DNA of 64,000 nucleotides. It comes from an uncultured Planctomycetia bacterium (GTDB lineage: Bacteria > Omnitrophota > Gorgyraeia > Duberdicusellales > 4484-171). The notes below the pieces were generated by a model. It saw only the letters and a list, made by a program, of their open reading frames with translations, was not told the DNA's origin and made no database searches. Both the position numbers and the translations under genes were made by a program. Positions 22,837 through 43,841 of this stretch are shown here, one piece after another (position 1 is the first letter of the stretch; every line of letters starts with the position of its first letter). The stretch is taken from the NCBI GenBank assembly GCA_964536865.1, contig CAZHYN010000001.1, positions 97,824 to 161,823 of the forward strand, in the 5' to 3' direction.

Positions 22837-22911
22837 TGCCCGGTGGTGCAACCGGTAACACGCTTGGCTCTGGACCAAGTATTCCTGGTTCGAATCCAGG
22901 CCGGGCAGCCA
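22837..22911 (+). tRNA. tRNA-Gln (anticodon CUG)
   Basis: Cloverleaf read by eye. Acceptor TGCCCGG/CCGGGCA, 3-bp D stem, anticodon stem CTTGG/CCAAG with loop CTCTGGA (anticodon CTG), T arm CCTGG-TTCGAAT-CCAGG, discriminator G, encoded CCA. Architecture resembles bacterial tRNA-Gln. Confidence 0.8.
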
Positions 22912-22984: not shown

Positions 22985-23194
22985 ATGTGGTATTTGTATA
23001 TATGTAAAAAAGGTGACAAGCTATACACTGGGATAACAACCAATCTCAATAATCGACTACGTCAACATCAGCAGGCTGAGTTGTTATATAGAGAGACTTT
23101 TCCAAATAAAAAAGAAGCGGCCTTACGTGAGCGCCAGATAAAAGGATGGCGCAGAGAAAAGAAGATTTCTTTAGTCTATCGCGGAAATAAATAG
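22985..23194 (+). CDS. small GIY-YIG nuclease domain protein
   Basis: 69 aa with GIY-YIG signature (WYLYICKKGDKLYTGITTNLNNRLRQH...E). Confidence 0.7.
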   Translation: MWYLYICKKGDKLYTGITTNLNNRLRQHQQAELLYRETFPNKKEAALRERQIKGWRREKKISLVYRGNK

Positions 23195-23221: not shown

Positions 23222-23241
23222 GAATCCAGGCCGGGCAGCCA
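23222..23241 (+). repeat. 20-bp direct repeat of the tRNA-Gln 3' end (att-like)
   Basis: GAATCCAGGCCGGGCAGCCA is identical to tRNA positions 22892..22911. Confidence 0.75.
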
Positions 23242-23758: not shown

Positions 23759-24580
23759 ATGCGTGAAAGAATGAAAGAATTTTATAGAAAAATCGGGGAT
23801 AGAATAAGACAATTGCGGGAAAAAATAGGGATTTCTCAGGAAGAACTAGCTAAATCTTTAGGCATAAATAGAGTTTCTTTATCTCAAATAGAAAATGGAG
23901 AAAGAAAAATAACAGCTGAAGAGGTTGCAAAGATTTCCAATATATTTAATATCAATGCCGATATACTATTAGATTTGGAAGAAGATATGAAGGTAGTGGT
24001 GGAAAAAAGAAAAACAAAAACTTCTTCTAAAAATATTAAATCAAACATTAGAATAAATATTCCTCAGAAGAATCTTGAGAAATTTAAAGAAGTTTTGCTT
24101 TATATTTTAAATAAAGTGGGGTCAAAGCCTAATATTGGAGAAACAGTATTGTATAAGCTTCTTTATTTTATAGATTTTGATTTCTACGAGAAATATGAAG
24201 AGCAATTGATAGGAGCCACATATATAAAGAATCATTTTGGTCCTACCCCCATAGAGTTTAGAGAAGTTATTAAAGAGATGAAGGGTAAAGATTTGATAGA
24301 AGTAAAAAGCGAATACTTTAAGTATCCCCAAAGAAAATACCTTCCTTTAAGAGAGCCGGATTTGAGTAAATTAAAAGCACATGAAATAAAACTTATAGAT
24401 GAGGTTTTAGAAAGATTATCTGATATGAATGCACAGCAAATAAGTGAGTATTCTCATAATGATATTCCTTGGTTGACTACAGAAAGAGGAGAACGTATAG
24501 ACTATGAATCAGTTTTTTATCGTACTTTACCCTATTCAGTGAGGAGCTATAGTGAAGATACCGACGAAGAGAATATTTAA
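23759..24580 (+). CDS. HTH_XRE + Panacea (DUF4065) domain protein, candidate PanA-type antitoxin
   Basis: N-terminal XRE HTH (LSQEELAKSLGINRVSLSQIENGERK). C-terminal region with Panacea-like pattern (LYKLLYFIDFDFYEKYEEQLIGATYIKNHFGP). Confidence 0.6.
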   Translation: MRERMKEFYRKIGDRIRQLREKIGISQEELAKSLGINRVSLSQIENGERKITAEEVAKISNIFNINADILLDLEEDMKVVVEKRKTKTSSKNIKSNIRINIPQKNLEKFKEVLLYILNKVGSKPNIGETVLYKLLYFIDFDFYEKYEEQLIGATYIKNHFGPTPIEFREVIKEMKGKDLIEVKSEYFKYPQRKYLPLREPDLSKLKAHEIKLIDEVLERLSDMNAQQISEYSHNDIPWLTTERGERIDYESVFYRTLPYSVRSYSEDTDEENI

Positions 24581-24989
24581 TGAAATCGTTGAGCTTCCCG
24601 AATTTAAAAAAGATTTTAAAAAACTTGCCAAAAAATTTAAAACCCTTCCAGATGATTTTGAGATATTTAAAAATACTCAACTAAAAGCATTTCATAAGTT
24701 AAAACAGGACAATAGAGGAAATTTACCAATATCTAACTTAGGAATAGATTATCCTTTAATCTATAAAGTTGTAAAATTTGCTTGCCGTGTTCTAAAGGGG
24801 AGAGGTGTTAAAAGTGGAATTCGTATTATTTATGCATATTATCCCGATGAGGACAAAATAGAATTTATTGAGATTTATTATAAGGGAGAGAAAGAAAATG
24901 AAGATAGAGAAAGAATATTAAGATATTATTCCAAGAAAGCAGGTAGCAAAGAAGGTAAAGAAGGAAAATACAGTAAAGGTCGCTCGTAG
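24552..24989 (+). CDS. RelE/ParE-fold toxin-like protein, candidate toxin partner
   Basis: Overlaps the upstream gene by 29 nt. Core GIRIIYAYYPDEDKIEFIEIYYKG resembles the RelE/ParE beta-strand signature (RIIY...i.I..i..R). Confidence 0.4.
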   Translation: MKIPTKRIFNEIVELPEFKKDFKKLAKKFKTLPDDFEIFKNTQLKAFHKLKQDNRGNLPISNLGIDYPLIYKVVKFACRVLKGRGVKSGIRIIYAYYPDEDKIEFIEIYYKGEKENEDRERILRYYSKKAGSKEGKEGKYSKGRS

Positions 24990-25167
24990 TGCAATTACAT
25001 AAGGTTTGTGATTAAAAGATACACTCTAAACACCCTAAAACTACAGTAGTGGAGACTATTAGAAGAAAAAAGAAATAATAAGCACAGCCAAAACCTCCCC
25101 CACCTACCAATGTTTTTTAAAAATCCTAACTCAGATGAACTCAGATGACCAAATCCATCCACCATAA

Positions 25168-25284
25168 GTGGATCTGCCTCTGGCAGAAAAATCAGGAATA
25201 TTTTACACTAGTGAATCTTTTTATTGTAACGTATGTGGGTATAGGGAAGTGTGTAAGGGATGGCGAGAAACAAGCTATTTGTGA
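25168..25284 (+). pseudogene. C-terminal remnant of a Cas4/PDDEXK-like nuclease (CX2CX5C)
   Basis: Start-less frame encodes ...GIFYTSESFYCNVCGYREVCKGW*. About 50 bp near-identical to 33505..33553. Confidence 0.35.
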
Positions 25285-25386
25285 CTAAAAATTTTCTTGA
25301 ACAGGGCGTTTCTAAGGTATAGAATAGAAACAAAATCAAGGAATAGTCCTGCGTTCGAAGGGGGAACCTGGACTTTAAAATAAGTA

Positions 25387-25424
25387 AAACCTTCGCAAGA
25401 TAGGCGAAGGTTTTTATATTTTAT
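25387..25424 (+). terminator. rho-independent terminator-like hairpin
   Basis: AAACCTTCGC-aagatag-GCGAAGGTTT followed by a T-run (TTTTTATATTTT). Confidence 0.5.
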
Positions 25425-25450
25425 AACCGTTCAAAACAAGGAGGTAACAG

Positions 25451-26203
25451 ATGAGGGGGCTGGGTGAGCTTAAAAATATCCAGATTATCATATTGGGGCT
25501 GTGTATTGCTTTTGCAACAATAGTATCTACAGTAATACTTTCAAAAGGGCTTCTTAAGATTAAGAAGTTTACAGGTGAGGTAATAAAGGTAACCGGTTCT
25601 GCTGAGAAGAAAATAATTTCTGATTATATTGTCTGGAATGCAGAATTTTCCCGAAGGGCACCTGATTTAAAAACAGCCTACGTAAAACTTCAAGAAGACC
25701 TTAAAAAAGTTAAAGAATATCTGGCTTCAAAAGGAGTAAAAGAAAATGAGCTGGAAATCCTTCCGGTTAATACCAAGATACTTTACAAAAAGAACGAAAA
25801 AGGCTATGACACCAATGAGATTGAAGGATATCTTTTATCCCAGGGCATAGAGATAAAATCCTATGATGTCAAAAAAATTGATGAGGTATCGCGTTCCTCA
25901 ACCGAACTTATCAACCAGGATATCCAGTTTATCTCAAAAGCACCTAAGTATTTTTATACAAAGCTTGCCGAACTCAAAGTAGAGATGCTTGCTAAAGCAA
26001 CTGAAAACGCAAAACAGCGCGCCATAAGTATGGCAAAATCAACGGGGAATAAGATTGGCGTTATACGCTCTGCCAGGATGGGAGTATTTCAGATAACTCC
26101 ACCTACCTCAACCGATGTTTCCTGGTATGGAGAGAATGACACATCCTCATTAGAGAAAAAAGTTATGGCAGTAGTCGCCGCCACCTTTTCCATAGAAGAA
26201 TAG
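25451..26203 (+). CDS. SIMPL/DUF541 family periplasmic protein
   Basis: 250 aa with N-terminal signal/anchor and SIMPL-like length and composition; call from overall pattern only. Confidence 0.5.
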   Translation: MRGLGELKNIQIIILGLCIAFATIVSTVILSKGLLKIKKFTGEVIKVTGSAEKKIISDYIVWNAEFSRRAPDLKTAYVKLQEDLKKVKEYLASKGVKENELEILPVNTKILYKKNEKGYDTNEIEGYLLSQGIEIKSYDVKKIDEVSRSSTELINQDIQFISKAPKYFYTKLAELKVEMLAKATENAKQRAISMAKSTGNKIGVIRSARMGVFQITPPTSTDVSWYGENDTSSLEKKVMAVVAATFSIEE

Positions 26204-26304
26204 AATATTAATTTGTTTCTGGTATATTCTTAAAATCCTGGCTTCAGGGTATTTTAATTGAGGATAGAGGGGAACAATGTTATAATATGTAACAACGCGG
26301 CATA

Positions 26305-26484
26305 ATGATGAAAAAAATAGCATTTGTAAATCCCCACACTGTCCAGGAAATAGCCCAAGCCCTCAAATTACATCCTTACACCATTCGCAGACTTTGCCGG
26401 GAAGGTAAAATCCCAGCTTTTTCCGCCATACTTTATGACGGATCCGCCTCTGGCGAAAAGTTTGGCGGGAGAATGGAGATTTAG
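26305..26484 (+). CDS. excisionase-family (Xis/HTH_17-like) DNA-binding protein, 59 aa
   Basis: Below the ORF-track size cutoff. EIAQALKLHPYTIRRLCREGKIPAF is near-identical to ORF 32358..32585. Confidence 0.55.
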   Translation: MMKKIAFVNPHTVQEIAQALKLHPYTIRRLCREGKIPAFSAILYDGSASGEKFGGRMEI

Positions 26485-26588
26485 AGAAAAGTGTTAAGAG
26501 AACAATTTACAAAGTGTTAAATATATGGTAATATCTATTGTTGTAATGCCATTGTAAATAAAGGATATTTTAAGATAAGTGTTAAATC

Positions 26589-27761
26589 TTGAAAATTATG
26601 GGTGTAAATTTTAAACATATCGATTTAAGATTGGTTGACCCACCTTTTGGCTCAGAATTAAATACTCTGGTGTTAGAACTTGATTATTTACGCAAGAAGC
26701 CTCTGGGCGGCACTACTCACCCACTTATATTTTTTCAATTGAAAAGAATTTTTCATCTTTTAGAGAGTATAGAGTCGGCAAGAATTGAAGGGAATCGTAC
26801 TACCTTAGCTGAGTATATCGAAAGGAAAATCGAGGGAAGCAAAATAGAAGATGAGAGATTTCTGGAAATTGAGAACAACGAAAGAGCGCTTGATTTTATT
26901 GAGGAAAATGTCAATCATCAGAAAATAGACCGTCTTTTTTTAAGCCAGATTCATAAAATAATAGTCAATAACTTAACTCCACCACCTAAAGGCGAAGGAA
27001 GTAAATACCCCAGTAGTTATAGAAAAGTAGATGTTAAAATAACACAATCTTCGTTTATCCCGCCCAATGTTTCTCAAGTCCCTTCTTATATGGAGGAGCT
27101 TTTTTCATTTATTAATAAAGATTATCCTCCACAGTATGATTTATTGAAAGTTGCTCTTGCTCACTGGAGGTTTGCCTGGATTCACCCCTTTGATAATGGC
27201 AATGGAAGGGTAGTGCGTTTATTGACTTATGCAATGTTAATAAAGTACGGTTTCAGGGTGCATATCGGAGGCAGGATTATTAATCCCACTGCTGTGTTCT
27301 GTTCTGACCGGAAAAAATATTATCATTACCTCTCAATGGCTGACCAAGGAGATGATACTGGATTGCTTAGGTGGTGTGAGTATGTTCTTGCCGGCCTTAA
27401 AGAGGAGATAACAAAAATTGATAAGTTGCTTGACTATAAATTTTTATTGGAAAAAATTTTAATACCCGCCTTAGAATTTGCCTTAGACAGAAAGTATATT
27501 ACAGAAGTAGAGCATAAAATATTAAAGATAGCAGCGAGTAAGCAAGTTATCCAGGCAAAAGATATTAAAATGCTTTTCCCTCGCAAGATACCTGCTGCCA
27601 TATCCAGGATTATCAGAAGGCTAAAGGCGAAAAAGATGCTCCAGGAAGAAAAAAGAGGCAGTAGAAAATATGTAATTATGTTTGAAAACAATTATTTATT
27701 GAGGGCAATTATAGAGATGCTGGGCAGGGAAGGTTTTCTGCCTGTTGGAATAAATCAATAG
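26589..27761 (+). CDS. Fic family protein (AMPylase/phosphocholinase family) with C-terminal wHTH
   Basis: Canonical Fic motif HPFDNGNGRVVR. C-terminal winged-helix-like region. Confidence 0.8.
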   Translation: MKIMGVNFKHIDLRLVDPPFGSELNTLVLELDYLRKKPLGGTTHPLIFFQLKRIFHLLESIESARIEGNRTTLAEYIERKIEGSKIEDERFLEIENNERALDFIEENVNHQKIDRLFLSQIHKIIVNNLTPPPKGEGSKYPSSYRKVDVKITQSSFIPPNVSQVPSYMEELFSFINKDYPPQYDLLKVALAHWRFAWIHPFDNGNGRVVRLLTYAMLIKYGFRVHIGGRIINPTAVFCSDRKKYYHYLSMADQGDDTGLLRWCEYVLAGLKEEITKIDKLLDYKFLLEKILIPALEFALDRKYITEVEHKILKIAASKQVIQAKDIKMLFPRKIPAAISRIIRRLKAKKMLQEEKRGSRKYVIMFENNYLLRAIIEMLGREGFLPVGINQ

Positions 27762-27841
27762 CTTTTACAATAAAGAATATTTATATTTTATAAATTGCAC
27801 TGAATTTAGCGATTCCGGTTTGATGTTAAGGAGATAGAAGA

Positions 27842-28279
27842 GTGGAAAAGAAATCAGAGAAAAAAGTGAAAAATGAAATTGATCAAGTTTATTTAAAAAG
27901 AGATAGGTTCTTTTTACTTAAAAACCCTACCGTTAAAAAACTGCATAAGATTCTTAAGTGGGCTAATTCTTGTGCTTTATTTTCTCAAGTTACTTTTCTT
28001 GACTGCGCTCAAAGTTTCAGGAGATTGCATTCTGATAAAAAAATAGAAGATTTACTCCCTTTTATTAATCAGAAGAATAAAACCTGTTTTAGGGTAATTT
28101 TGCGAAGAGATTTCAACTGGTATGGCTGGTTTTCTGATGATACTCATATTGAAGATATTATTGAAGTTGCTATGTGGGGAATTGAAATTGATTCAAAAGA
28201 GTATTTTATACAATGTTTCTTAAAGAAAGAATATATGCCTGAATTAAAAAAGAAATTTGATTTGGTAGAAATTAAATGA
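27842..28279 (+). CDS. hypothetical protein
   Basis: 145 aa, GTG start. 5' leader and first codons (GTGGAAAAGAAATCA) shared with RadC copy 2. Confidence 0.3.
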   Translation: MEKKSEKKVKNEIDQVYLKRDRFFLLKNPTVKKLHKILKWANSCALFSQVTFLDCAQSFRRLHSDKKIEDLLPFINQKNKTCFRVILRRDFNWYGWFSDDTHIEDIIEVAMWGIEIDSKEYFIQCFLKKEYMPELKKKFDLVEIK

Positions 28280-28382: not shown

Positions 28383-29840
28383 ATTACCAGATATAAAATT
28401 TTTGTAAGTTCTGTCCAGAAAGAATTAGAAAAAGAAAGAGCTGCTATTGATAATTTTATTAACTCTGATGTTTTCCTTTCAGAATATTTCAATGCCTTCA
28501 TATTTGAAAAATTACCTGCCAAGGAGAAATCAGCTAAAAAAGTTTATCTCAATAAACTTAAAAATAGTGATATTTACATAGGCATTATTGGAAAAGAATA
28601 TGGAGAAATTCAAGAAAATGGATTATCTGCGTTTGAGAACGAATTTCGTCTTGCTCAACAGTTAGGCTTACCTATTTTTGTCTATATTAAAGGGAAAGCT
28701 TCTCAAGACAAAAGGCGAGATAAGAGATTGCAGAAGATAATTAAAGAGATTAAACATCCTGGGGAAGGTTACATTTACAGACGTTTCACCAGCATTGAGG
28801 AGCTTAAACGTTTGATACAATCCAGTCTAATAGAATTCTTAAGAGAAAGAGGAATTATTAGCAAAAAGATAGAAGCTTTTGAGGAGGAAGTTTGTAAAGA
28901 AGCAACTTTAAAAGACATAGATGAAGATAGAGTTGAATGGTTTTTACAGATTGCAAAAGAAAAGAGGGGTTTTTCTATTCCTGTAAGTCAAAGGTCATCT
29001 TTAAAAGATATTTTAATTCATCTTAATTTAATAAAAGAAAACAAACTTACAAATGCTGCCGTTTTGCTTTTTGGTAAAGACCCTTCTAAATTTTTCCATC
29101 AAGCAGAAATAAAATGTTTACATCTTCCCGGGGTAGAAATTTGCAAACCGTTTTTATCCTATAAAATCTACAACCAGAATTTATTTGAACAGATAGATAA
29201 AGCTATAAGTTTTGTATTAGATGCTATCAGACAAAGCGTTATTCAGCAAGAACATACTCCTCAATTTTACCGTCCTTTTGAAATTCCTGTATTTGCCATT
29301 CAAGAAGCGATAGTTAACGCTGTTGCCCACCGAAATTATAATAACACTGCAGGGGTTCAGGTGTTGGTTTTTGTAGATAGAGTAGAGGTGTGGAGCCCAG
29401 GAAGACTTCCTCCAGCTTTAACTGTAGAGGATTTAAAGAAACCGCATACTTCATATCCCACAAATCCTCTTATTGCACGAATTTTATTTCTTGCTAACTA
29501 CATCCAGAAAGCAGGAACAGGAACATTAGAGATGGTAAAACAATGTAGAGAACATGGAATTCCTGAACCGCAATTTGTTACTATACGTGATGTAGAATTC
29601 AGAACCATTCTGCCCCGAGATATTTACACAATATCTTTCTTAAAACAAGCGGGATTAAATGAAAGACAAATACAGGCAGTAAAGATTGTTAAAGAAAAAG
29701 GAGCTATTAGTCTTTCTGATTTGCAAAATATCTATAAGAATATTACTCGCAAAACCTTATATCGTGATTTACAAACTCTTGTAAATAAAGGTATTCTTAA
29801 AGCAAGAGGAGACAAAAGGGGGCGTAAATACTCTTTTTAG
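28383..29840 (+). CDS. DUF4062 N-terminal domain + HATPase_c_4 + C-terminal wHTH protein; start codon uncertain
   Basis: In-frame extension upstream of ORF 28728 encodes YKIFVSSVQKELEKERAAIDNFI (DUF4062-like). No ATG/GTG/TTG follows the stop at 28362 until TTG at 28728. Strong RBS AAAGGAGG at 28369 followed by ATA/ATT. C-terminal part has the HATPase_c_4 motif AIVNAVAHRNY. Confidence 0.45.
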   Translation: MTRYKIFVSSVQKELEKERAAIDNFINSDVFLSEYFNAFIFEKLPAKEKSAKKVYLNKLKNSDIYIGIIGKEYGEIQENGLSAFENEFRLAQQLGLPIFVYIKGKASQDKRRDKRLQKIIKEIKHPGEGYIYRRFTSIEELKRLIQSSLIEFLRERGIISKKIEAFEEEVCKEATLKDIDEDRVEWFLQIAKEKRGFSIPVSQRSSLKDILIHLNLIKENKLTNAAVLLFGKDPSKFFHQAEIKCLHLPGVEICKPFLSYKIYNQNLFEQIDKAISFVLDAIRQSVIQQEHTPQFYRPFEIPVFAIQEAIVNAVAHRNYNNTAGVQVLVFVDRVEVWSPGRLPPALTVEDLKKPHTSYPTNPLIARILFLANYIQKAGTGTLEMVKQCREHGIPEPQFVTIRDVEFRTILPRDIYTISFLKQAGLNERQIQAVKIVKEKGAISLSDLQNIYKNITRKTLYRDLQTLVNKGILKARGDKRGRKYSF

Positions 29841-29845: not shown

Positions 29846-29880
29846 GGGACATTTATGGGACATTTGGGACATTTATGGGA
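29846..29880 (+). repeat. tandem repeat (GGGACATTTAT)x3 upstream of RadC copy 1
   Basis: GGGACATTTATGGGACATTTGGGACATTTATGGGA read directly. Confidence 0.7.
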
Positions 29881-29979
29881 TAGATATAAGACATATTTTC
29901 CCCGCTATACTTTGGGGCAGATTTTCTCTATCGGAAAATTTAGTGAACAATGGAAGCTTGAGGGAAGGAAGATAGGAAA

Positions 29980-30693
29980 ATGAAAAATAAATCAAAACAA
30001 CGTAAAGTTTATGAGAAAGCAATAAAAAATTGGCCAAAGGACGAACGTCCCAGAGAGAAGCTTTTTAAATTAGGAGAACACAAACTTTCCAATACAGAAC
30101 TTTTAGCTATTTTGCTTCGCAGTGGTATAAAGGGAGAAAGTGCTGTTGACCTGGCAAGAAGAATCATTCAAAAATTCAGAACTTTCAGAAATATGAGCCA
30201 TACAGATATAAGAGACTGGAAAGAATTTAAAGGTTTAGGTCAGGCAAAAATAGCCCAGATTAAAGCAGCAATTGAAATAGGAAGAAGATTTAGAGAAGAG
30301 GAAATAAAAGAAAAACCTCCTCAGATAAAATCCTCCTGTGATGTTGTAGAAATTATGATGCCAAGAATGAGAGACTTAAAGAAAGAAGTATTTAAAATAC
30401 TCCTTCTAAATTCCAAAAACAGGATTCTTGATATTGTAGAAATAACTCAGGGCACAGTAAACCAGGCAAACCCCATAATAAGAGAAATATTTGAAAAATC
30501 TTTACAATCCTATGCTTCATCCATCATCTGCGTCCACAACCATCCTTCCGGAGATCCTAAACCCAGCAAAGAAGACGAAGAATTCACTAAAAGCTTAACT
30601 AAAGCAGGAGAAATTCTAAACATAAAAGTATTGGACCATATCATAATAGGAGATGATGAATACTATAGTTTTGCTGATGAAGGGACGATATAA
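29980..30693 (+). CDS. radC: RadC-like JAB/MPN domain protein (copy 1)
   Basis: HhH-like N-terminus (LSNTELLAILLRSG) and JAMM motif HNHPSGDPKPSKED. Confidence 0.8.
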   Translation: MKNKSKQRKVYEKAIKNWPKDERPREKLFKLGEHKLSNTELLAILLRSGIKGESAVDLARRIIQKFRTFRNMSHTDIRDWKEFKGLGQAKIAQIKAAIEIGRRFREEEIKEKPPQIKSSCDVVEIMMPRMRDLKKEVFKILLLNSKNRILDIVEITQGTVNQANPIIREIFEKSLQSYASSIICVHNHPSGDPKPSKEDEEFTKSLTKAGEILNIKVLDHIIIGDDEYYSFADEGTI

Positions 30694-30990
30694 TTATTTA
30701 GATTGAAGAGGTATAATAAGGAAAAATTTTTTAAGAGTTAGAAGGCCAATTTATTGAGAAAATTTGCTAAAGATATGGTTTTTATAAATGATTTAAGAGG
30801 AAAGTTAGAATATAAAAAATAAAAGAGAGGCATTACCGCGGGACTAACCCCTTTGGATAGCCTCTCATCGTGATTCAACTTAAGTATATAACATAACCTT
30901 ATGAATATCAAGGAGGTTTGTGAATTTTTATAGATTTGCTTAGAAATTTAACCAAAGAAATCATCGTAGCCATAGAAAATCAAGAATGAT

Positions 30991-32385
30991 ATGACCAAGA
31001 AAGAACTAAATATAATTTTAAAAGAAGGTGAAGGATACAAGATTGAATTTAAAGAGAAGGTAAGTAATATCGAGAAGGAGTTGGTAGCATTTGCCAATTC
31101 CTCTGGTGGCAGGATACTGCTTGGGGTAACCGACGATGGTAAGATTAAGGGAATAAATGTAACCAATAGACTGAAATCTATGATTCAAGATATAGCGAAT
31201 AATTGCCGTCCGCCAATTAAGATTTCTTTTGAAAGCATAGGTAACGTTCTTGCGGTTAATGTAAAAGAAGGAGAAGATAAACCCTATGAATGCACTTCTG
31301 GTTTTTACAAAAGAATGGGGCCAAATTCTCAGAAAATGACAAGAAACGAACTAATTAGATTCTTTAAAGCAGAGGGAAAAATCAGGTTTGACGAACTTAT
31401 AGAGCCAAAGTTTAGTTATCCTAAAGATTTTGACAAAGGGAAATTTAAAAGATTCTTGCAATTGGCCGATATCTCCAGAGTGGGAAGTGCAGAAAAATTA
31501 CTTGTTAGTTTAGGGGTGGCTGAGAAACAGGAAGGCAGACTCTACTTTAATAATGCCGGTATACTTTTCTTTGCTAAAGAACCACAGAGGTTTATTCCCT
31601 GGTCAGTGTATACTGTGGCATTATTTAAAGATGAAGCAGGAGTTGATATTATAGACAGAAAAGAGATAACTGGCAGTTTATTTGAGATTGTAGAGGAGGT
31701 AATGAAATTTGTAAGGCTTTATACAAAAGTTGCCTACCGTTTTACCGGCAGACCTCGCAGAGAAAATGTATATGAATACGCTTTTGATGCAATCAGGGAG
31801 GCAGTAATAAATTCAGTAATGCATAAATATTACTTTGAACATGGACACAACAATATCTTGAGATTCTTCCCTGACCGAATAAGGATTGAGAACTACTGGC
31901 AAAAGCCTGGCCATTTTGTTCTTGGCAAAACTGTCTTTAGAAGAAACCATATTATCGCTGATTTGTTTTCCAAAATTCATTTCGGCGAGAAAATGGGTAC
32001 AGGTTTTGAGAGAATAAGACAAATATGTAAAAAAGAAAAAGCCCCTTATCCTGATATTGAGTTTACCGAAAATTACTTCTATATAACTTTCAAGCAGAGC
32101 TATGAATACTTAAAACTTGCTGGGAAGCGTCCTCCTAAAGAAGGGTCTTTAACTACTACCCAGAAACAGAAAACTGTGGAGAAAACTGTGGAGAAAACTG
32201 TGGAGAAGATTCTGCATTTGATTAAAGAAAATCCCAAAATAACAATGAGAGAAATAGAACGGGTAACCGGTTTAAGCAGACGAGGCGTTGAATGGAATAT
32301 TGCCAAACTCAAAAAAGAAGGTCAAATCAAACGCATTGGTCCTGATAGAGGCGGGTATTGGCAAATTGTGGCAGAGAAAAAATAA
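30991..32385 (+). CDS. AlbA_2 (Schlafen-like divergent AAA) + HATPase_c_4 + wHTH protein
   Basis: AlbA_2 N-terminus (EGEGYKIEFKEKVSNIEKELVAFANSSGGRILLGV) and HATPase_c_4-like (AIREAVINSVMHKYY). In-frame 3x repeat TVEKTVEKTVEK before the C-terminal wHTH. Confidence 0.7.
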   Translation: MTKKELNIILKEGEGYKIEFKEKVSNIEKELVAFANSSGGRILLGVTDDGKIKGINVTNRLKSMIQDIANNCRPPIKISFESIGNVLAVNVKEGEDKPYECTSGFYKRMGPNSQKMTRNELIRFFKAEGKIRFDELIEPKFSYPKDFDKGKFKRFLQLADISRVGSAEKLLVSLGVAEKQEGRLYFNNAGILFFAKEPQRFIPWSVYTVALFKDEAGVDIIDRKEITGSLFEIVEEVMKFVRLYTKVAYRFTGRPRRENVYEYAFDAIREAVINSVMHKYYFEHGHNNILRFFPDRIRIENYWQKPGHFVLGKTVFRRNHIIADLFSKIHFGEKMGTGFERIRQICKKEKAPYPDIEFTENYFYITFKQSYEYLKLAGKRPPKEGSLTTTQKQKTVEKTVEKTVEKILHLIKENPKITMREIERVTGLSRRGVEWNIAKLKKEGQIKRIGPDRGGYWQIVAEKK

Positions 32386-32585
32386 TGAGCAGGCAAGTTT
32401 TATCCGATATAATTAAAGAATTCTCTCCCACTGTAGAAGAAATAGCCCAAGCCCTTAAACTTCATCCTTACACCATTCGCAGGCTTTGCCGTGAAGGTGA
32501 AATCCCAGCTTTTTCCGCCATACTTTATGGCGGATCCGCCTCTGGCGAAAAATTTGGCGCTTCCGTTTTGATGTTAAGGAGATAG
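32358..32585 (+). CDS. excisionase-family (Xis/HTH_17-like) DNA-binding protein
   Basis: 75 aa. EIAQALKLHPYTIRRLCREGEIPAF; paralog of 26305..26484. Confidence 0.55.
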   Translation: MANCGREKIMSRQVLSDIIKEFSPTVEEIAQALKLHPYTIRRLCREGEIPAFSAILYGGSASGEKFGASVLMLRR

Positions 32586-32590
32586 AAGAA

Positions 32591-33307
32591 GTGGAAAAGA
32601 AATCAAGGCACTACAAAGTTTATGAGAAAGCAATAAAGAACTGGCCTGAAGATGAACGTCCCAGAGAGAAGCTTTTTAAATTAGGAGAACACAAACTTTC
32701 CAATACTGAACTTTTAGCTATCTTACTCCGTAGTGGTATAAAAGGAGAAAGTGCAATTGACTTGGCAAGGAGAATCATTCAAAAATTCAAAACCTTCAGG
32801 AATATGAGTCATACCAATTTAAATGATTGGAAAGAATTTAAAGGTTTAGGTCAGGCAAAAATAGCCCAGATTAAAGCAGCAATTGAAATAGGAAGAAGAT
32901 TTAGAGAAGAGGAAATAAAAGAAAAACCTCCTCAGATAAAATCCTCCTGTGATGTTGTAGAAATTATGATGCCAAGAATGAGAGACTTAAAGAAAGAAGT
33001 ATTTAAAATACTCCTTCTAAATTCCAAAAACAGGATTCTTGATATTGTAGAAATAACTCAGGGCACAGTAAACCAGGCAAACCCCATAATAAGAGAAATA
33101 TTTGAAAAATCTTTACAATCCTATGCTTCATCCATCATCTGCGTCCACAACCATCCTTCCGGAGATCCTAAACCCAGCAAAGAAGACGAAGAATTCACTA
33201 AAAGCTTAACTAAAGCAGGAGAAATTCTAAACATAAAAGTATTGGACCATATCATAATAGGAGATAATAAATATTACAGTTTTGCTGATGAGGGAAAAAT
33301 AAGGTGA
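32591..33307 (+). CDS. radC: RadC-like JAB/MPN domain protein (copy 2)
   Basis: Near-identical to 29980..30693 after the first ~10 codons. HNHPSGDP motif. Confidence 0.8.
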   Translation: MEKKSRHYKVYEKAIKNWPEDERPREKLFKLGEHKLSNTELLAILLRSGIKGESAIDLARRIIQKFKTFRNMSHTNLNDWKEFKGLGQAKIAQIKAAIEIGRRFREEEIKEKPPQIKSSCDVVEIMMPRMRDLKKEVFKILLLNSKNRILDIVEITQGTVNQANPIIREIFEKSLQSYASSIICVHNHPSGDPKPSKEDEEFTKSLTKAGEILNIKVLDHIIIGDNKYYSFADEGKIR

Positions 33308-33316: not shown

Positions 33317-33409
33317 ATGAGAGAAAAAGATATCAATTTTGAAGAAAAACTCTGGAAGGCAGCAGATAGAGAAAATATTATAAAAACTTTCCCAAAATTC
33401 AACGAATAA
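33317..33409 (+). pseudogene. 30-codon N-terminal fragment resembling HsdM N-terminus
   Basis: MREKDINFEEKLWKAADREN matches the HsdM_N LWxAADxLRG-type motif, then terminates. Confidence 0.3.
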
Positions 33410-33474
33410 CCCTAACCAAAACCGACCAACACACAATTCGCTTCCTCAAAATCTTAACCCAGGTAACCCGTGCC

Positions 33475-33552
33475 ATTAAAGGTGGTATCTTTTACCCCAG
33501 CAAATCTTTTTATTGTAATGTATGCGGGTATAGGGAATTGTGCAGGAAGTGA
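33475..33552 (+). pseudogene. second C-terminal remnant of Cas4/PDDEXK-like nuclease (CX2CX5C)
   Basis: ...IKGGIFYPSKSFYCNVCGYRELCRK*. Near-identical DNA to 25214..25262. Confidence 0.35.
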
Positions 33553-33647: not shown

Positions 33648-35435
33648 ATGATGCCCAATTGGCTTAATAGAAGATATGAAATTTTATGGGGAGCATTTCA
33701 ATCTTCTCCTTTCTGTGTCGAAGATGCTACACGCGTGCTTAAAGAAAAATTTGATGATAGTGAGGAACAGATTAATGTTGTACTCTCGGAACTAAGAAAA
33801 GAAGGTATGCTTAAAGTAGAATTTGATCCCACTGACGCAAGGAAAAGAGTCTATCAACTTATAAGTAGAGAGCAAATAATTTCTGAGAGATTCTCCATTA
33901 CAAATAAGCAATTAACAAGAGGAGATCTTGAAGGGCTTCTCAAGGCAGCAGCAGATCTCATAAGAACAAGGGTCGATTATACTTTTATCCTCGTTCTTCT
34001 TTTCTACAAAAGAATTAGTGACAAATGGAAGATGGAATTTGAGAATGCATATAAAGAAGCACTTGCTGATGGATTGAGTGAAGAAGAAGCAAAGAAGGAG
34101 GCAAGAAATGCCATATATCATGACTTTGATATTCCTGAGGAGTTTCTCTGGGAGAATATAAGGAAGGAACCAACCAGATTACCTGAAAATTTTTCCAAAG
34201 CAATGAAAGTTTTGGCAGAAAGGAACTCCGGACTTAAGGATGTATTTGAGAATGTAGATTTTGTTCAATTTACCACCAATAGAGAAAATGCTGAAGTTTT
34301 AAGACAATTAGTTGAACTTTTCAGTGCTAAAGCGTTACACCATGTATCCCCTGATATTCTTGGAGATGCTTACGAGTGGATATTAAGGTACTTTGCCCCT
34401 CAGAAAGCTAAGGAAGGAGAAGTCTACACTCCAAAAGAGGTTATCAATCTCATTATTGAAATGGTCGATCCAAAACCAGGTGAAAGTGTATATGACCCAG
34501 CCTGTGGTTCGGGTGGTATGCTTATCAGCGCTTATAAGCATGTTGAAAATAATCTTGGCAGGAACGAAGCAGATAAGCTCTTTCTCTTTGGGCAGGAATA
34601 CAATCACAAGACTCTTGCTCTTGCTAAAATGAATCTTTACATCCATGATATCAGGAATGGTCAGCTTGCTCTGGGAGACACATTGCTTTATCCCAAATTT
34701 AAGGAAGGTAACCTGCCTGCGTCCGCAGGACAGTCAGGTAAGTTAAAGAAATTCGATGTTGTTATAGCCAATCCCCCGTGGAATCAAGATGGATATAGTG
34801 AGGAGACTCTTAAAAAAGGTGAGTTCTGGCGGGAGAGATTCAACTTCGGGTTCACACCAAAACAATCAGCAGACTGGGCATGGATAGAGCACATGTTAGC
34901 TTCAGCAAAGGAGAGAGGTGGCAGAGTGGGGGTTGTTATAGATAATGGTTGCCTTTTTAGAGGCGGGAAGGAGAAGGCGATAAGAACAAGTATCGTCAAT
35001 GCTGACCTGATAGAGGCTGTTATTCTTCTCCCTGAAAAACTCTTTTATAATACTGGAGCACCAGGAGCAGTAATTGTTCTTAATAAAAATAAACCAAAGG
35101 CAAGGAAAGGAAAAGTCTTATTCATAAATGCAAGCAATGAATACGAGCAACATCCAAGTGTTCGGAAACTCAACCGTTTGGGAGATGAGCATATAGAGAA
35201 GATAGTCAAAGCATATAAAGAGTTTAGAGACTCAGGTGGATTTTCAAAGGTTGTAGAGATTGAGAAGATAAAAGAGAACGGCTATAACCTGAATGTCACG
35301 CTATATGTATTCCCGGAAGAGGAGATTGAGGAGATAGATGTAACTAAAGAGTGGGAAGGACTGCGTAAGGTAGAAAGGGAACTTGTGGAGGTTGAAAAGA
35401 AGATTGAGGGATATCTAAAAGAATTAAAATACTGA
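33648..35435 (+). CDS. hsdM: type I restriction-modification system methyltransferase subunit
   Basis: 595 aa. HsdM_N motif LLKAAADLIR, SAM motif DPACGSGGML and catalytic NPPW (VVIANPPWNQ). Confidence 0.9.
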   Translation: MMPNWLNRRYEILWGAFQSSPFCVEDATRVLKEKFDDSEEQINVVLSELRKEGMLKVEFDPTDARKRVYQLISREQIISERFSITNKQLTRGDLEGLLKAAADLIRTRVDYTFILVLLFYKRISDKWKMEFENAYKEALADGLSEEEAKKEARNAIYHDFDIPEEFLWENIRKEPTRLPENFSKAMKVLAERNSGLKDVFENVDFVQFTTNRENAEVLRQLVELFSAKALHHVSPDILGDAYEWILRYFAPQKAKEGEVYTPKEVINLIIEMVDPKPGESVYDPACGSGGMLISAYKHVENNLGRNEADKLFLFGQEYNHKTLALAKMNLYIHDIRNGQLALGDTLLYPKFKEGNLPASAGQSGKLKKFDVVIANPPWNQDGYSEETLKKGEFWRERFNFGFTPKQSADWAWIEHMLASAKERGGRVGVVIDNGCLFRGGKEKAIRTSIVNADLIEAVILLPEKLFYNTGAPGAVIVLNKNKPKARKGKVLFINASNEYEQHPSVRKLNRLGDEHIEKIVKAYKEFRDSGGFSKVVEIEKIKENGYNLNVTLYVFPEEEIEEIDVTKEWEGLRKVERELVEVEKKIEGYLKELKY

Positions 35436-35443
35436 TCAATGAC

Positions 35444-36976
35444 ATGCAAACTAATACTTTAAAAGAAATAATCAATAAATGGAGAGGTAAAGAAGGAGAA
35501 CGTATTGAATATAAACTCTCTGCTTCTACTTTATCAAAAGACATATGGGAAACCGTATCTGCTTTTTCAAACGAAGGCGGCGGTGTAATTCTACTTGGGT
35601 ATAAAAAAATCGGTAAGAAATATGTTCCCGTAGGAGTTAAAGATCCCTCAAAAATTCTTGATGATTTTACTTCTACTGTTAGTCAAAAATTCAATTTTTG
35701 TCCTGTTGTCTCTGCAAAGATTGTTGAAGACAGTGGTAAACCCACAATAGTTATAGAAGTAAAAGAAGCTCCACGGTATCAAAAGCCCATTTATATAAAA
35801 GATGCAGGTCCTCTTAAAGGAGGATTTAAAAGGGTTGGTGCTACAGACATTAGGCTTACAGACGAGGATGTGTATAGATATTATCTGGAAAGAATGGGAG
35901 CTCCTGATGCTCAACCAATAAATGGAACTACATTAGATGATATTGATCCTGCTACTCTTACAGCGTTTCGGAACTTAAGGAGAATTATAAATCCCAATGC
36001 TCCGGAATTAAGGTTTGATGATAAAGAACTTCTAAAGGCATACAACTTACTATCCAAAGACTCCGAAACATTAACAACTGCGGGCTTACTTCTTTTTGGA
36101 AGAGAAGAGATAGTGAAAAGACATTTTCCAGCGGTTCGGCTTGATGTCATAAGGGTAAAAGGTATCGAATGGGGCAAAGACAGAGACCCCTTTCTCTCCA
36201 GAGATTTAACAGGAAATCTCATAACTCTGCGTTCATTAGCGATAGATTTTCTGGATAGGTTCTTCCTTGTTCCTTTCCATACGGATAAAAGAGGTGAGAG
36301 GATAGAAGAAAATGCTCATCGCAAAGCCCTGAGAGAAGCACTTACCAATCTTTTAATGCACCAGAACTATTTTCACCGCAGTCCTGCACAGATAAGAATT
36401 TATAACGATAGGATTGAATTTTATAACCCTGGCTATTCTTTGAAGGATCCATCTTTATTTGATTCTCCTGGTTCTGAGTTAAGGAATCCTTCAATTGCGG
36501 CGGTTTTTTATGATATTGGTTGGGCAGAGGCGAAAGGGACAGGGCTTAAAACCACTATTGAATCACTTAAGAGTGAGGGTTACCCTATCCCTGAGTATTT
36601 AAATGACATCAAACATGACACTTTTACTTTGGTGCTTCCCCATCCAATAGTAGAAGTCACCGAACAAGTCACCGAACAAGTCACCGAACAAGTTGCGAAC
36701 ATGATGGACCGGAGGGCTATGACTCTGGAATTCTGTAAGGAGCCGAGGTCTTTAAAAGAAATAATGCAGTTTCTTGGGCTTAAACACCGACCCAATTTTA
36801 TAGAAAAGGTGTTGAATCCTCTTCTTGAAGCAGGGTTGTTAAAAAGAACGATCCCAGACAGGCCAAGAAGCAGGTTTCAAAAATATGTGGCTGTGAAGAA
36901 GGAGGCACATTATGGCAAAAAACAAGCACGATCAAATAGCAGAGAGGTTGGCAAAGAAGTTTGGGGTGGAGTATAA
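35444..36976 (+). CDS. AlbA_2 + HATPase_c_4 + wHTH protein, embedded in the RM operon
   Basis: AlbA_2-like N-terminus (IEYKLS...VSAFSNEGGGVILLGY) and HATPase_c_4-like (REALTNLLMHQNYF). In-frame 3x VTEQ repeat. Starts 9 nt after the hsdM stop. Confidence 0.7.
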   Translation: MQTNTLKEIINKWRGKEGERIEYKLSASTLSKDIWETVSAFSNEGGGVILLGYKKIGKKYVPVGVKDPSKILDDFTSTVSQKFNFCPVVSAKIVEDSGKPTIVIEVKEAPRYQKPIYIKDAGPLKGGFKRVGATDIRLTDEDVYRYYLERMGAPDAQPINGTTLDDIDPATLTAFRNLRRIINPNAPELRFDDKELLKAYNLLSKDSETLTTAGLLLFGREEIVKRHFPAVRLDVIRVKGIEWGKDRDPFLSRDLTGNLITLRSLAIDFLDRFFLVPFHTDKRGERIEENAHRKALREALTNLLMHQNYFHRSPAQIRIYNDRIEFYNPGYSLKDPSLFDSPGSELRNPSIAAVFYDIGWAEAKGTGLKTTIESLKSEGYPIPEYLNDIKHDTFTLVLPHPIVEVTEQVTEQVTEQVANMMDRRAMTLEFCKEPRSLKEIMQFLGLKHRPNFIEKVLNPLLEAGLLKRTIPDRPRSRFQKYVAVKKEAHYGKKQARSNSREVGKEVWGGV

Positions 36977-37208
36977 GAAAAGTAAAGGTATTGATATTGT
37001 AACCAAAGAGAAAGTTATCGAAGTTGAAACTAAGAAAGGTTCTTTATACCAAGGAATAAATCAGATAAAAAGAGCTTCTAAAGCAAGGTATGTTGCAGTT
37101 AATAAATTAAATATTAACAATGCTTTAAAGGCTACGAAAGGAACCGGTATAGGAATTATGGGACCTACTGGAAGGATAATAAAGAGAGCGAGAAGAAATA
37201 AGAAATAA
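36912..37208 (+). CDS. minimal PD-(D/E)XK fold protein (YraN/UPF0102-like) with basic tail
   Basis: 98 aa. GIDIVTKEKVIEVETKK fits the hhDhh...(D/E)hK pattern. Lys/Arg-rich C-terminus. Overlaps the upstream gene by 65 nt; the next gene starts 3 nt after its stop. Confidence 0.35.
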   Translation: MAKNKHDQIAERLAKKFGVEYKKSKGIDIVTKEKVIEVETKKGSLYQGINQIKRASKARYVAVNKLNINNALKATKGTGIGIMGPTGRIIKRARRNKK

Positions 37209-37210
37209 AA

Positions 37211-39031: not shown

Positions 39032-39034
39032 GTT

Positions 39035-40354: not shown

Positions 40355-40733
40355 GTAGACGGCATACAGTAAACAGTAGACAGGGAAAGGCAGAGAGATT
40401 TGAGCAGTTAGAAGTATGGAAAAAGGCACATGAGTTGGTTCTTAAAATAACAAAATTACAAAAGATTTTCCTTCAGAGGAAAAATTTGGATTAGTTTCAC
40501 AAATGCGACGTGCTGCTGTATCAATCCCTGCTAATATCGCTGAGGGATTTAAAAAGTATGGCTTAAAAGATAAGAGGAACTTTTATAACATAGCACAAGG
40601 CTCTCTTGAGGAATTAAGATACTATTTAATTTTATCAAAGGAACTTGGATATTGTGAAAATACAGATGAATTTTATAAAGCAATAGATACAATTGGGAAA
40701 ATGTTATATGGCCTTATTAAAAGTATACAGTAG
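40351..40733 (+). pseudogene. four-helix-bundle (23S rRNA IVS family) protein gene, frameshifted
   Basis: ATG overlaps the hsdS stop (ATGA). Frame A encodes MSRR...FEQLEVWKKAHELVLKITK. Frame C continues ITKDFPSEEKFGLVSQMRRAAVSIPANIAEG... Shift occurs in the A-rich tract near 40465. Confidence 0.55.
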
Positions 40734-40835
40734 GCAGTCTACAGCAAACAGGGAATTCGTTGTCAAACAATCTCCCTGCAGTCTACTGTCTACCGTCTAC
40801 TGTCTACTGTTTACAAACTCAAAGGAGCACCAAAG

Positions 40836-43800: not shown

Positions 43801-43841
43801 AGAAACTTATTGAAAGAGTAAAGAACTATGGGACTTCATAA
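40836..43841 (+). CDS. hsdR: type I RM restriction subunit (helicase/endonuclease)
   Basis: 1001 aa. N-terminal PD-(D/E)XK region, SF2 helicase motifs (HWQGSGKT, FIDEGHRTQYG, TGTP). Confidence 0.9.
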   Translation: MAFDEKRLVEDYIIKQLEEKGWRFVPANALERDSYEEPLLIPNLRRALERINKESGIGDEEINKALNELKLTGTGIEGAKRILNFYKFGIPVKFEKEKVVKYIQLFDFQDIENNEFIVSRQVYFYGREAIRTDIILYVNGIPLVNIECKNPTSLTESWHTAYRQIKDYERLVPELYKYIQIGIGAESIARYFPIVPWQDEPVIHEWRDEKKDSIDSTVEMLSRNILLDIIKNYLFYREWRGEATKVITRYMQYRAANKMVDRVIKNLKGEEKKNKGLVWHWQGSGKTLTMLFAANKLYYAKELENPTIFFIVDRIELEDQLYKEFYSLDIVKPEIIGSVDELKGILQFDDYRGKRGVFITLIHKFRPEELKELYKELDEVTRYKETIMNRKNVIAFIDEGHRTQYGLLAAQMKSILKSAFFFALTGTPISKKGRDTYLEFSYPPDEVYLDRYFITDSIRDGFTVKIAYQPRLEKEVHLRKDLLKAFLEAEEEELPEEIRDDIKGRIKKRLNAIKVVLENPQRIKVIAEDIAKHFKEHIDGKFKAMVVAGSRKACHIYKQELDRHLPPEYSEIVMTYRRDDEQPLVKRIAETRERYGNRDISDIRKDIVEKFKEEAFPKILIVTDMLLTGFDAPILQVMYLDKLLKEHRLLQAVARTNRPYKDLKEGGLIIDYVGILKEFRKALEMYNEEDIRLALTSFDGIREEFALLLREILEILKEVSRNYEREVLLKACEILTTEKTKEKEFIEKYKSLRKAFELLGPDEIKLEYFEDYKWISAIYTYYMRTVLQKPPVEEYVERYYEKTVRFIHKATEIKKLETDLPIVAFDEGYLKALEERVKSRKEKAANILFTLNRLVLVERHRNPIYESLVEKVERLLELWKEKTKDYERIYREGVIAINEIKSLSERQKSLGFSDLEYSLLLALEEKFGKEEELVSEVRDISERLKNYMFPGWFNQPTVEKNVEREVRRFVRGFKGKYSMTLEEMDQLYKKLIERVKNYGTS

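Follow-up and report, generated by a model that had tools for sequence, protein, structure and literature searches.

A Fic gene indel in an Omnitrophota defence island as the probable scar of recombination among excisionase-like gene modules

Introduction

How does a gene come to be present at one of two similar junctions of a genome and to be missing at the other? This question is raised by a 64,000-nt stretch of DNA (the window; GenBank assembly GCA_964536865.1, contig CAZHYN010000001.1, positions 97,824 to 161,823 of the forward strand) from a genome of the Candidatus Omnitrophota, in which a defence island lies beside a tRNA-Gln gene. The island harbors two small excisionase-like genes, Xis_A and Xis_B, each containing an imperfect palindrome that can form hairpins. 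Downstream of Xis_A (locus A) a Fic gene is situated between the two halves of a junction which are directly joined at Xis_B and followed there by a RadC gene (locus B). A first-pass annotation, made from the nucleotide sequence, had described the Fic gene as a discrete cassette, inserted or deleted at a defined site immediately 3' of the palindromic motif. Comparison with related loci of other assemblies (L numbers) and with relatives of the encoded proteins (P numbers) points to a different origin. The defence island is modular, and the Fic indel is probably a composite scar left by recombination and not a fixed-site cassette.

Results

Two junctions and three collinear pieces

The strings on which the cassette proposal was built are present where the first-pass annotation had placed them, and both halves of the junction match in blastn. 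The left halves (26337-26467 and 32429-32559) are 91.6% identical over 131 nt (E 1e-48), the right halves (27803-27856 and 32551-32605) 92.7% over 55 nt (E 2e-17), and the Fic open reading frame (ORF) is located inside the 1,335 nt between them. The 16-mer GGATCCGCCTCTGGCG occurs three times exactly and five times with up to three mismatches in the window, compared to 0.06 expected occurrences. The Fic segment is bordered by an imperfect 9-nt direct repeat (AGTTTGGCG at 26459-26467 and AATTTAGCG at 27803-27811). Read in frame, both copies are the KFG codons of Xis genes, common to every Xis gene. What stands of the proposal is a discrete 1.3-kb difference between two paralogous junctions, with edges no more than about 12 nt from the 3' edge of the hairpin motif. 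Insertion at a defined site is not supported, as the left end of the segment falls within a complete Xis gene with a tail of its own.

Collinearity of the two junctions is found beside the Fic segment, but it is short and is interrupted a second time. Upstream of 26337 and 32429 the loci are unrelated; the N-terminal leaders of the Xis genes differ, and the preceding genes encode a SIMPL protein at locus A and a 464-aa Schlafen/AlbA_2 protein at locus B. Downstream of 27856 and 32605, orf145 follows at locus A and RadC_b at locus B, and the match of locus A to RadC_b restarts only after a further 2.1 kb (29965-30685, 94% over 722 nt). Since the blastn matches fall into three blocks, locus B is collinear with three separate pieces of locus A. 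The left halves diverge at 26467/26468 because Fic-type and RadC-type tails part after the shared KFG codons.

Xis-like genes, their tails and their cargo

Twenty-four relatives of the Xis-like genes were obtained by database search, all of them in metagenomes of the Candidatus Omnitrophota type. Intact relatives match Pfam HTH_17, and the two window ORFs match it partially (model positions 3-36 of 51 for Xis_A and 3-31 for Xis_B). According to the family alignment, intact genes have the layout ...LKLHPYTIRRLCREGKIPAF-KFGGQWRF-variable tail with a nearly invariant core. Some relatives contain 11-12 extra residues between IPAF and KFGG (SAILYGGSASGE, STAEGRFASGE and similar), which are encoded by the hairpin motif; the hairpin is thus an in-frame insertion in the wing of the protein. 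An AlphaFold model of an insert-bearing Xis protein is of low confidence (predicted local distance difference test, pLDDT, 58), with the insert region modelled as unstructured.

Each type of tail is paired with one type of downstream gene: FDV(K/R)EIEEW with RadC (L130), RKDEIDRWSRYR with a PLD-SNF2 helicase (L129), DKQELDNL with HsdM (L004) and KKEALKK..LQSVKYMV with Fic (L128). The HTH_17/MerR-like winged helix of excisionases is present in the intact relatives (Pfam), while the partner integrase of a mobile element was not found in the island and the Xis genes directly precede defence genes. They may act as regulators of these genes. A weak PADLOC match to mad1 (3e-8) was also recorded.

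Xis_A is truncated by a 1-nt insertion after KFGG (GGCGGG-AGAA-TGG compared to GGCGGG-CAG-TGG in intact genes), a frameshift also present in the independent assemblies L004 and L005. In the +1 frame its tail is still legible, and the continuation LQSVKYMV matches the tail of an intact relative, P0010 (tail WRFKKEALKKCLQSVKYMVAF), which is directly followed by Fic in L128. Positions 233-1699 of L128 are 88.8% identical to window positions 26272-27742, with unrelated DNA upstream; the homology of L005 to the Xis_A-Fic block stops at 27799. As intact Xis and Fic are contiguous in L128 as one unit, Fic does not split Xis_A. By this comparison, Xis_A and Fic are inherited as a single module, with Fic as the natural partner of Xis_A. 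The unit that recurs in the other context of L128 starts at 26272, ahead of the Xis gene, and not at 26468; a promoter-like site of the module is located at 26258-26286.

The Fic protein, an exact copy of which is encoded on three other contigs, contains the class-II inhibitory motif SARIEGN and the active-site motif HPFDNGNGRVVR (read from the sequence), which follows the pattern HxFx(D/E)GNGRxxR with N at the D/E position. It resembles SoFic, a single-gene anti-phage defence in the PADLOC models, in that this model is matched over nearly its full length and both the active-site and the class-II motifs are present. Unlike SoFic, it has a dedicated HTH_17 leader gene in front, which is intact in L128 and broken in the window; the function of the Fic protein is predicted.

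The right half of the junction is, by sequence comparison, the C-terminus of a second Xis gene, of the type that leads RadC. Its intact counterpart is P0005 (...KFGGQWRFDVREIEEWKKHQ...), followed by RadC in L130. The orphaned tail at locus A is 4 nt short of the intact KFGGQWRF junction, and the decayed tail at locus B shares this lesion with the orphan at 27812: Xis_B reads AAATTTGGCG-CTTC-CGTTTTGAT after KFGG, compared to ...GGCAGTGG... in intact genes. RadC_a is 94% identical to RadC_b at the DNA level and 96% identical to the RadC gene of L004 from position 30004 on.

Programmed frameshifting or translational bypass in the Xis genes was considered, since the WRF part of the wing is encoded in other frames, and rejected. 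Intact relatives encode the hairpin in frame (P0001-P0005, P0010, P0012), the defects in the window are a 1-nt insertion with an in-frame stop (Xis_A) and a 4-nt loss (Xis_B), and the Xis_A frameshift is common only to its 97%-identical orthologues.

The same modules in related genomes

A single contig, L004 (GCA_011052855.1), spans both loci in the order SIMPL, Xis_A, Fic, orphan tail, RadC, 464-aa Schlafen gene, Xis_B (intact, 80 aa), HsdM and SIR2. Its positions 3138-5607 are 97.2% identical to 25382-27853 of the window and its positions 5620-8175 are 96.2% identical to 30004-32559, with no match beyond 32559. According to this alignment, the window differs from L004 by an extra 2.15-kb block, which separates the orphan tail from RadC_a, and by a decayed RadC-type tail plus RadC_b in place of the native Xis_B tail. 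Behind the 464-aa Schlafen gene, the B-type heads of L004 and L131 match the window at 96% identity as far as position 32559, and the sequences are unrelated from there on, with another tail and cargo in L131; in public data this head is joined to at least six other tails or cargos (P0001-P0006).

On these data it is quite improbable that locus B arose as a copy of an A-like locus and lost the Fic segment through slippage at the 9-nt repeats, with the palindrome as a possible stimulus. Locus B is not locus A without Fic. Its leader and its upstream gene are different. Its head groups with the B alleles of other genomes and not with Xis_A, and the orthologues of this head in L004 and L131 are intact Xis_B genes with other tails. 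RadC_b is 6% diverged from RadC_a, and its tail is closer to the L004 copy than to the right half at locus A (shared extra A in GAAGAAGTGG). A deletion would fit the imperfect direct repeats at both edges, even though these are the KFG codons found in every Xis gene, and it would fit the 4-nt lesion common to the right half at locus A and the locus B tail. Palindrome-associated deletions are also known in the Xis family; in L142 and L167 an internal deletion ends in the palindrome loop.

The SIMPL-Xis_A-Fic block (97% identical) ends at a common boundary, ...ATAAATTGCA, in the window, L004, L005 and L136. Behind this boundary, the RadC-type orphan is found in the window and in L004, and an intact PLD-type orphan (EKFGGQWRFRKDEIDRWSRYRTRYKD, ending in a stop) with the PLD-SNF2 gene in L005 and L136. 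The homology of L005 to the intact module in L129 starts exactly at AAAATTTGG, right after the 3' arm of the palindrome.

Identity of the window to L004 and L005 is approximately 100% over SIMPL, Xis_A and Fic but dips to 0.70-0.90 between 26390 and 26489. Within this dip, Xis_A contains the Xis_B-type palindrome (CCAGCTTTTTCCGCCATACTTTATG.CGGATCCGCC), while the orthologues have CCCGCGTTTTCCACCGCCGAAGGCAGATTCGCC. The different element variant of L004 and L005 at this site points to gene conversion in the window Xis_A, and the dip is a short conversion tract from Xis_B. This tract accounts for an identity of 91.6% between the left half at locus A and locus B, rather than the approximately 84-87% found between Xis_A of L004 or L005 and Xis_B of the window. 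The likeness of the left halves, one foundation of the cassette proposal, is thus partly the product of a recent conversion. In L130, a B-type leader is combined with the other palindrome variant, so that crossover points inside the Xis head vary.

A scan of metagenomes for the KFGGQWR codons yielded approximately 24 intact genes without the insert among 30 true family members; only L136, L140, L142 and L167 were orphaned or damaged. In L140, a RadC 5' fragment is followed by a head-truncated Xis gene with a Fic-type tail and by Fic, i.e. the modules are joined in the opposite order, with other breakpoints and without a palindrome. An unannotated 448-aa ORF with transposase-like features (L140, 2071-3417, minus strand) adjoins this rearranged junction.

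These findings bear on a site-specific process of the integron or IS200/IS605 kind, in which a trans-acting enzyme would read the folded double hairpin and insert or exchange a tail with its cargo immediately 3' of it, the Fic unit being one of these cassettes. Several breakpoints are no more than about 12 nt from the 3' edge of the palindrome (the left half at locus A compared to locus B; locus B compared to L004 and L131), the L005 orphan compared to L129 starts exactly at ...GGCGA/AAAATTTGG, two different orphan tails follow an identical Fic 3' boundary, an imperfect 9-nt repeat surrounds the Fic segment, and pairing within the element is kept by compensatory changes. Such a process is nevertheless unlikely. 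The unit shared with L128 takes in the whole Xis gene and its promoter and not the tail and Fic alone, the orphan site is the variable junction although it lacks a palindrome, and L140 joins the same modules at another position without one. The apparent break at 32559/26467 is set by the 4-nt lesion inside the KFGGQW codons common to all paralogues. Moreover, the palindrome is absent in most family members (approximately 24 Xis genes out of 30), and few relatives have orphan tails. Pfam identified no integrase or transposase in any plus-strand ORF of 80 aa or more from 22.9 to 47.4 kb, nor in the minus-strand ORF 46494-46796.

The resemblance to integron cassettes is limited to a gene-sized difference beside an imperfect hairpin-forming palindrome and to a short repeat at both edges. 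Unlike in integrons, IntI is missing from the island, the segment has no attC site at its 3' end and GTTRRRY cores are absent; the segment boundaries read TTTGGCG/GGAG and TTTAGCG/ATTC. Positions 27762-27802, at the 3' end of the Fic segment, are AT-rich without an inverted repeat or hairpin, while the palindrome is located 5' of the segment, inside Xis. In further contrast to integron cassettes, the shared unit includes its own leader gene with promoter-like sites, starting at 26272 instead of 26468, and the palindrome is a 30-36-nt coding insertion which also occurs in unrelated genes. IS200/IS605 and other HUH elements have subterminal hairpins at both ends and a TnpA (Y1 HUH) gene, and insert 3' of a short specific target; at the Fic gene, no hairpins are found inside the segment ends and no transposase in the island.

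An assembly artefact, i.e. chimeric junctions produced where the assembler crossed between Xis or RadC copies of co-existing strains, is very improbable. Contigs of other assemblies of this population do stop here (L001 within RadC_a, L002 123 nt behind Fic), and a large number of relatives are found on contigs of 0.5-3 kb. The junction of Xis_A, Fic and orphan is, however, identical in independent assemblies from other samples (L001-L003, L004, L005, L136), both loci are spanned by the one L004 contig, and the A and B copies share only 9-15 nt exactly at the B junction, which is too short to mislead an assembly with k=141.

The double-hairpin element

The palindrome in the Xis genes is an element of 30-36 nt, TCCGCC-NNN-GGCGGA followed by TCCGCC-TCT-GGCGGA, which forms two tandem hairpins with 6-bp stems and contains no stop codon in any of the six frames. 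Among the further copies in the window (Table 1), the one in the minus-strand ORF 46494-46796 is an exact insertion of 10 aa, PPEADPPLVD, absent in nine homologues. This ORF belongs to a conserved membrane-anchored family (approximately 87 aa, 89 homologues, mostly from Omnitrophota-type metagenomes) without a Pfam match.

Scanning other genomes for the 16-mer GGATCCGCCTCTGGCG gave at least 120 loci (L008-L127); the counts given here refer to the matches listed. The complete double hairpin was present in 51 of the 120 loci, amounting to 57 copies, 56 of which have a length divisible by three. Open frames of at least 150 aa contain 37 of the 57, and the frame used is usually SAxGGSASGG or its reverse-strand equivalent. 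The flanking sequence is T-rich upstream and A-rich downstream. Most hosts are Patescibacteria, with Omnitrophota, Verrucomicrobiota, Elusimicrobia, Chloroflexota and others also represented, and the element is nearly identical in sequence across these phyla. Host genes confirmed by Pfam include topA, a class-I aminoacyl-tRNA synthetase (aaRS) gene, rpoB, rpoC, tsaD, gyrA and a gene for an Mfd-like helicase.

Empty sites were identified in Xis genes (IPAF/KFGGQWRF, GCTTTT^AAATTTGG, i.e. GCTTTT^AAATTT), in homologues of ORF 46494-46796 (CATTA^TACAGG) and in the aaRS gene (TATTTC^AAGCC), the last of which is filled in L045 and L054 and empty in L123. No target duplication was seen at these three pairs of empty and filled sites. 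The exact 30-mer was found once among 2.9 million viral contigs, so that phage carriage is no obvious route of spread. A description of the element was not found in the searchable literature, the coverage of which is incomplete.

Several other identities of the element were rejected. An intron or ribozyme does not fit, as there is no Rfam match at the element and relatives translate it. CRISPR repeats would be arrayed, which the copies are not. An adaptor or assembly artefact is at odds with the varying loops and arms of the 30-mer, with its location inside ORFs and with the many studies from which the assemblies originate.

Rickettsia palindromic elements (RPEs, reviewed in PMC10969869) and PARCEL, palindromic coding repeats (PMC2996958), are comparable to the hairpin element, though not to the Fic segment, in being multi-copy palindromes which are situated in frame in unrelated genes, add a peptide and leave the ORF unbroken, with filled and empty sites among homologues. 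The element differs from both in its length (30-36 nt compared to about 100-150 bp), in its two tandem hairpins and in the lack of stop codons; moreover, RPEs are restricted to Rickettsia, while the present element occurs across phyla and in core genes. Repetitive extragenic palindromes (REPs) and bacterial interspersed mosaic elements (BIMEs), mobilised by the IS200/IS605-like REP-associated tyrosine transposase RAYT, likewise consist of short hairpins rich in GC, which are present in many copies and in some cases paired in tandem, without target-site duplication. In contrast to these, which are extragenic, species-specific and equipped with a conserved GTAG/CTAC head recognised by RAYT, the element is mostly intragenic, cross-phylum and without such a head among the matches listed.

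It is conceivable, though the chances are somewhat below even, that the element is a cross-phylum mobile mini-element not described before, which inserts at T-run/A-run junctions without target duplication, keeps its pairing by compensatory changes and is tolerated in frame, mainly in the form of SAxGGSASGG loops, even in essential genes (rpoB, rpoC, topA, gyrA, tsaD, aaRS) of Patescibacteria and Omnitrophota, and which in Xis also serves as a fragile or recombination site focusing the exchange of defence modules.

Further features of the island

The features of both loci and the element copies are compiled in Table 1. The second block at locus A also contains tandem GGGACATTT repeats, possibly an operator-like array. 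Behind RadC_b, a 5' fragment of hsdM (MREKDINFEEKLWKAAD..., 33317-33409) is followed by the 3' end of a CxxC (Cas4/RecB-like) nuclease gene (..IFYPSKSFYCNVCGYRELC, 33440-33552). A second 3' end of this nuclease gene, 85% identical, is situated upstream of SIMPL at 25195-25262, just 3' of a palindrome copy.

Table 1. Features of loci A and B and copies of the double-hairpin element in the window
Feature	Position	Strand	Basis or remark
30-nt element copy with compensatory arm changes (TCTGCC...GGCAGA), in a pseudogene fragment	25158-25187	+	sequence
Xis_A+Fic module (promoter-like site, Xis_A, Fic, AT-rich 3' flank)	26272-27799	+	comparison with L128 and L005
Xis_A, HTH_17 excisionase-family gene, identical to P0007	26305-26484	+	Pfam, family alignments
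36-nt double-hairpin element in Xis_A (SAILYDGSASGE), in frame between IPAF and KFGG codons	26422-26457	+	sequence
Fic segment as delimited by the first-pass annotation	26468-27802	+	edges are the imperfect 9-nt repeats AGTTTGGCG/AATTTAGCG
Decayed C-terminal tail of Xis_A, Fic-associated type (EWRFREKC and stop, +1 frame)	26471-26497	+	frame reading
Fic gene, SoFic type	26598-27761	+	Pfam Fic 3e-17; PADLOC SoFic 1e-45
Orphan Xis 3' end, RadC-associated type (FRFDVKEIEEWKRNQRKK and stop)	27813-27869	+	comparison with P0005/L130
orf145, fused to the first five codons of RadC (VEKKS)	27842-28279	+	second block
Second inserted block compared to L004	27854-30003	+	L004 positions 5607 and 5620 correspond to window positions 27853 and 30004
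Schlafen-related HATPase_c_4 gene	28728-29840	+	second block; Pfam
Three tandem GGGACATTT(AT) repeats	29846-29880	+	between Schlafen-related gene and degenerate palindrome remnant, upstream of RadC_a
Degenerate palindrome and KFSEQWKLE remnant	29899-29983	+	second block
RadC_a	29980-30693	+	Pfam RadC 1e-44
Xis_B, B-type head (MSRQVLSDIIKEF...), palindrome 32514-32549	32385-32585	+	Pfam; frame broken at 32560
Element copy in Xis_B	32514-32549	+	sequence
Decayed RadC-type Xis tail at locus B (CTTCCGTTTTGATG...), in the RadC_b frame	32560-32594	+	sequence comparison
RadC_b	32591-33307	+	Pfam RadC, blastn
Recombination debris after RadC_b	33317-33552	+	hsdM 5' fragment, then nuclease 3' fragment
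30-nt element copy TCCACCAAAGGTGGATCCGCCTCTGGCGGA in ORF 46494-46796 (minus strand), in frame, PPEADPPLVD	46591-46620		homologue comparison

The tRNA-Gln(CTG) gene at one edge of the island is located at 22837-22911. Its last 20 nt are repeated exactly 310 nt downstream (23222-23241), with a GIY-YIG fragment in between (22985-23194). The repeat looks like an att-type scar of a lost integrative element at the island edge. A tRNA-Gln-integrated element with an integrase was rejected, as only the 20-nt repeat and the GIY-YIG fragment were found and no integrase. At the far edge, a cobalamin riboswitch (47458-47671; Rfam, 107 bits) upstream of the NrdD anaerobic ribonucleotide reductase and its activase marks the return to the core genome.

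Several further gene groups were recorded in the island. An HTH_3-SocA/Panacea antitoxin-type gene overlaps a 145-aa ORF without family match (23759-24989); the two likely represent a toxin-antitoxin pair with an uncharacterised toxin. A type I restriction-modification (R-M) operon (33648-43841) is interrupted by extra defence genes. It comprises an hsdM gene with an N-terminal extension of approximately 90 aa, a Schlafen/AlbA_2 gene with a Fic-like C-terminal domain, a gene for a 606-aa SIR2_2 protein matching the PADLOC candidate PDC-S65 (3e-194), hsdS, hsdR and a gene for a YgjP-like metallopeptidase. Imperfect repeats of approximately 60 nt surround a small winged helix-turn-helix gene (45132-45422) at 44920-45562, with 2.4-2.8 copies at 45394-45562 and related copies at 44920-45106. 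A CRISPR array was rejected here, as spacing and repeat identity do not fit.

Discussion

Recombination among Xis-led modules, i.e. homologous recombination or gene conversion combined with illegitimate joints, is the probable explanation for the junctions described here. The pairing of tails with cargo, the orphan tails, the conversion tract and the allelic diversity under one head were observed directly, as was the lack of a local recombinase, while the order of events, the pathway and any part played by the palindrome are given as a reconstruction. The island is composed of two-gene modules, in which the 3' end of an HTH_17 leader gene abuts or overlaps a gene for Fic/SoFic, RadC, PLD-SNF2 helicase or hsdM, with Xis tails that vary and move together with their cargo gene. 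Paralogous and incoming modules would recombine in the Xis core because it is so alike at the DNA level. At locus A, an Xis+Fic module would have come to lie ahead of a former Xis+RadC module, the Xis gene of which survives only as the orphan tail. At locus B, a different Xis head would have been joined to the same decayed RadC-type tail and a second RadC copy. Later, the 2.15-kb block with orf145 and the Schlafen-like gene may have entered locus A at the RadC start, and the conversion tract may have copied the Xis_B palindrome into Xis_A.

Homologous recombination and gene conversion, with the Xis core or RadC as anchor, are the favoured mechanism, combined with occasional illegitimate joints by which resident tails and cargo would be left stranded downstream (displacement through homology-facilitated illegitimate recombination). 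The orphan may first have formed by such a displacement or by deletion of a head from tandem modules. Illegitimate joints are frequent nearby, among them the fusion of orf145 with RadC and the hsdM and nuclease fragments after RadC_b. The in-frame palindrome beside the KFGG codons may favour breaks there. Homologous and illegitimate recombination are preferred over site-specific insertion since no recombinase is encoded in the island, the breakpoints vary and orphan tails are rare.

Some observations weigh against recombination among modules as the source of the scar. One left boundary, ...ATAAATTGCA, stands before two different orphan tails, which needs either two independent joints or an exchange using only approximately 26-55 nt of Xis homology. 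The exact start of the L005 homology at the 3' edge of the palindrome is of a precision that a hairpin-directed mechanism would predict. An empty locus A (SIMPL-Xis-RadC without Fic) was not found in an exact search with the SIMPL and RadC_b proteins, and the direction of events is not established for this reason. Finally, all data originate from metagenome assemblies, and the B junction was seen in one assembly only.

The closest published parallel to module displacement is found in Rhs, contact-dependent inhibition (CDI) and type VI secretion system (T6SS) effector-immunity loci, where C-terminal displacement gives rise to arrays of orphans (Jackson 2009; Poole 2011; Koskiniemi 2014; Kirchberger 2017, PMC5361080). 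They are an analogue of displacement with retained orphans, for which homology-facilitated illegitimate recombination is one proposed mechanism (PMC5361080). As in these systems, a conserved 5' part is combined with a variable 3' part which co-varies with the downstream gene (four tail types with one cargo each), and many alleles occur under one head. Here too, recombination of incoming modules would take place in the conserved part and displace the resident 3' end with its partner to a downstream position, and the orphan 3' fragments keep a piece of the conserved region (window 27803-27869, the L004 site and the PLD-type orphans of L005 and L136). In contrast to these systems, the conserved gene does not encode a large toxin but an HTH_17 DNA-binding protein of 60-90 aa, the modules carry defence genes (SoFic-type Fic, RadC, PLD-SNF2, type I R-M) instead of toxin tips and immunity genes, and only single orphans are found, no long arrays. 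The locus works like a member of the Rhs/CDI/T6SS displacement family without being one.

What appeared as the clean indel of a cassette is thus an overlap of three ordinary processes, namely displacement leaving an orphan end, a second insertion nested in the locus and gene conversion from one paralogue to the other. Leader genes of the small HTH_17 type can act as a conserved recombination handle for the exchange of cargo, similar to the toxin cores of Rhs, CDI and T6SS, and such a handle helps to account for the diversification of defence islands without dedicated recombinases. For the Fic gene, the process is of a known kind and the value of the finding mainly corrective. The hairpin element is potentially novel and much more widespread, and may matter more. 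With 30 nt, it would represent a selfish or functional DNA element of very small size, and it would serve as a practical marker in genomes of the candidate phyla radiation (CPR) and the Omnitrophota, as well as being a source of annotation and assembly breaks in them.

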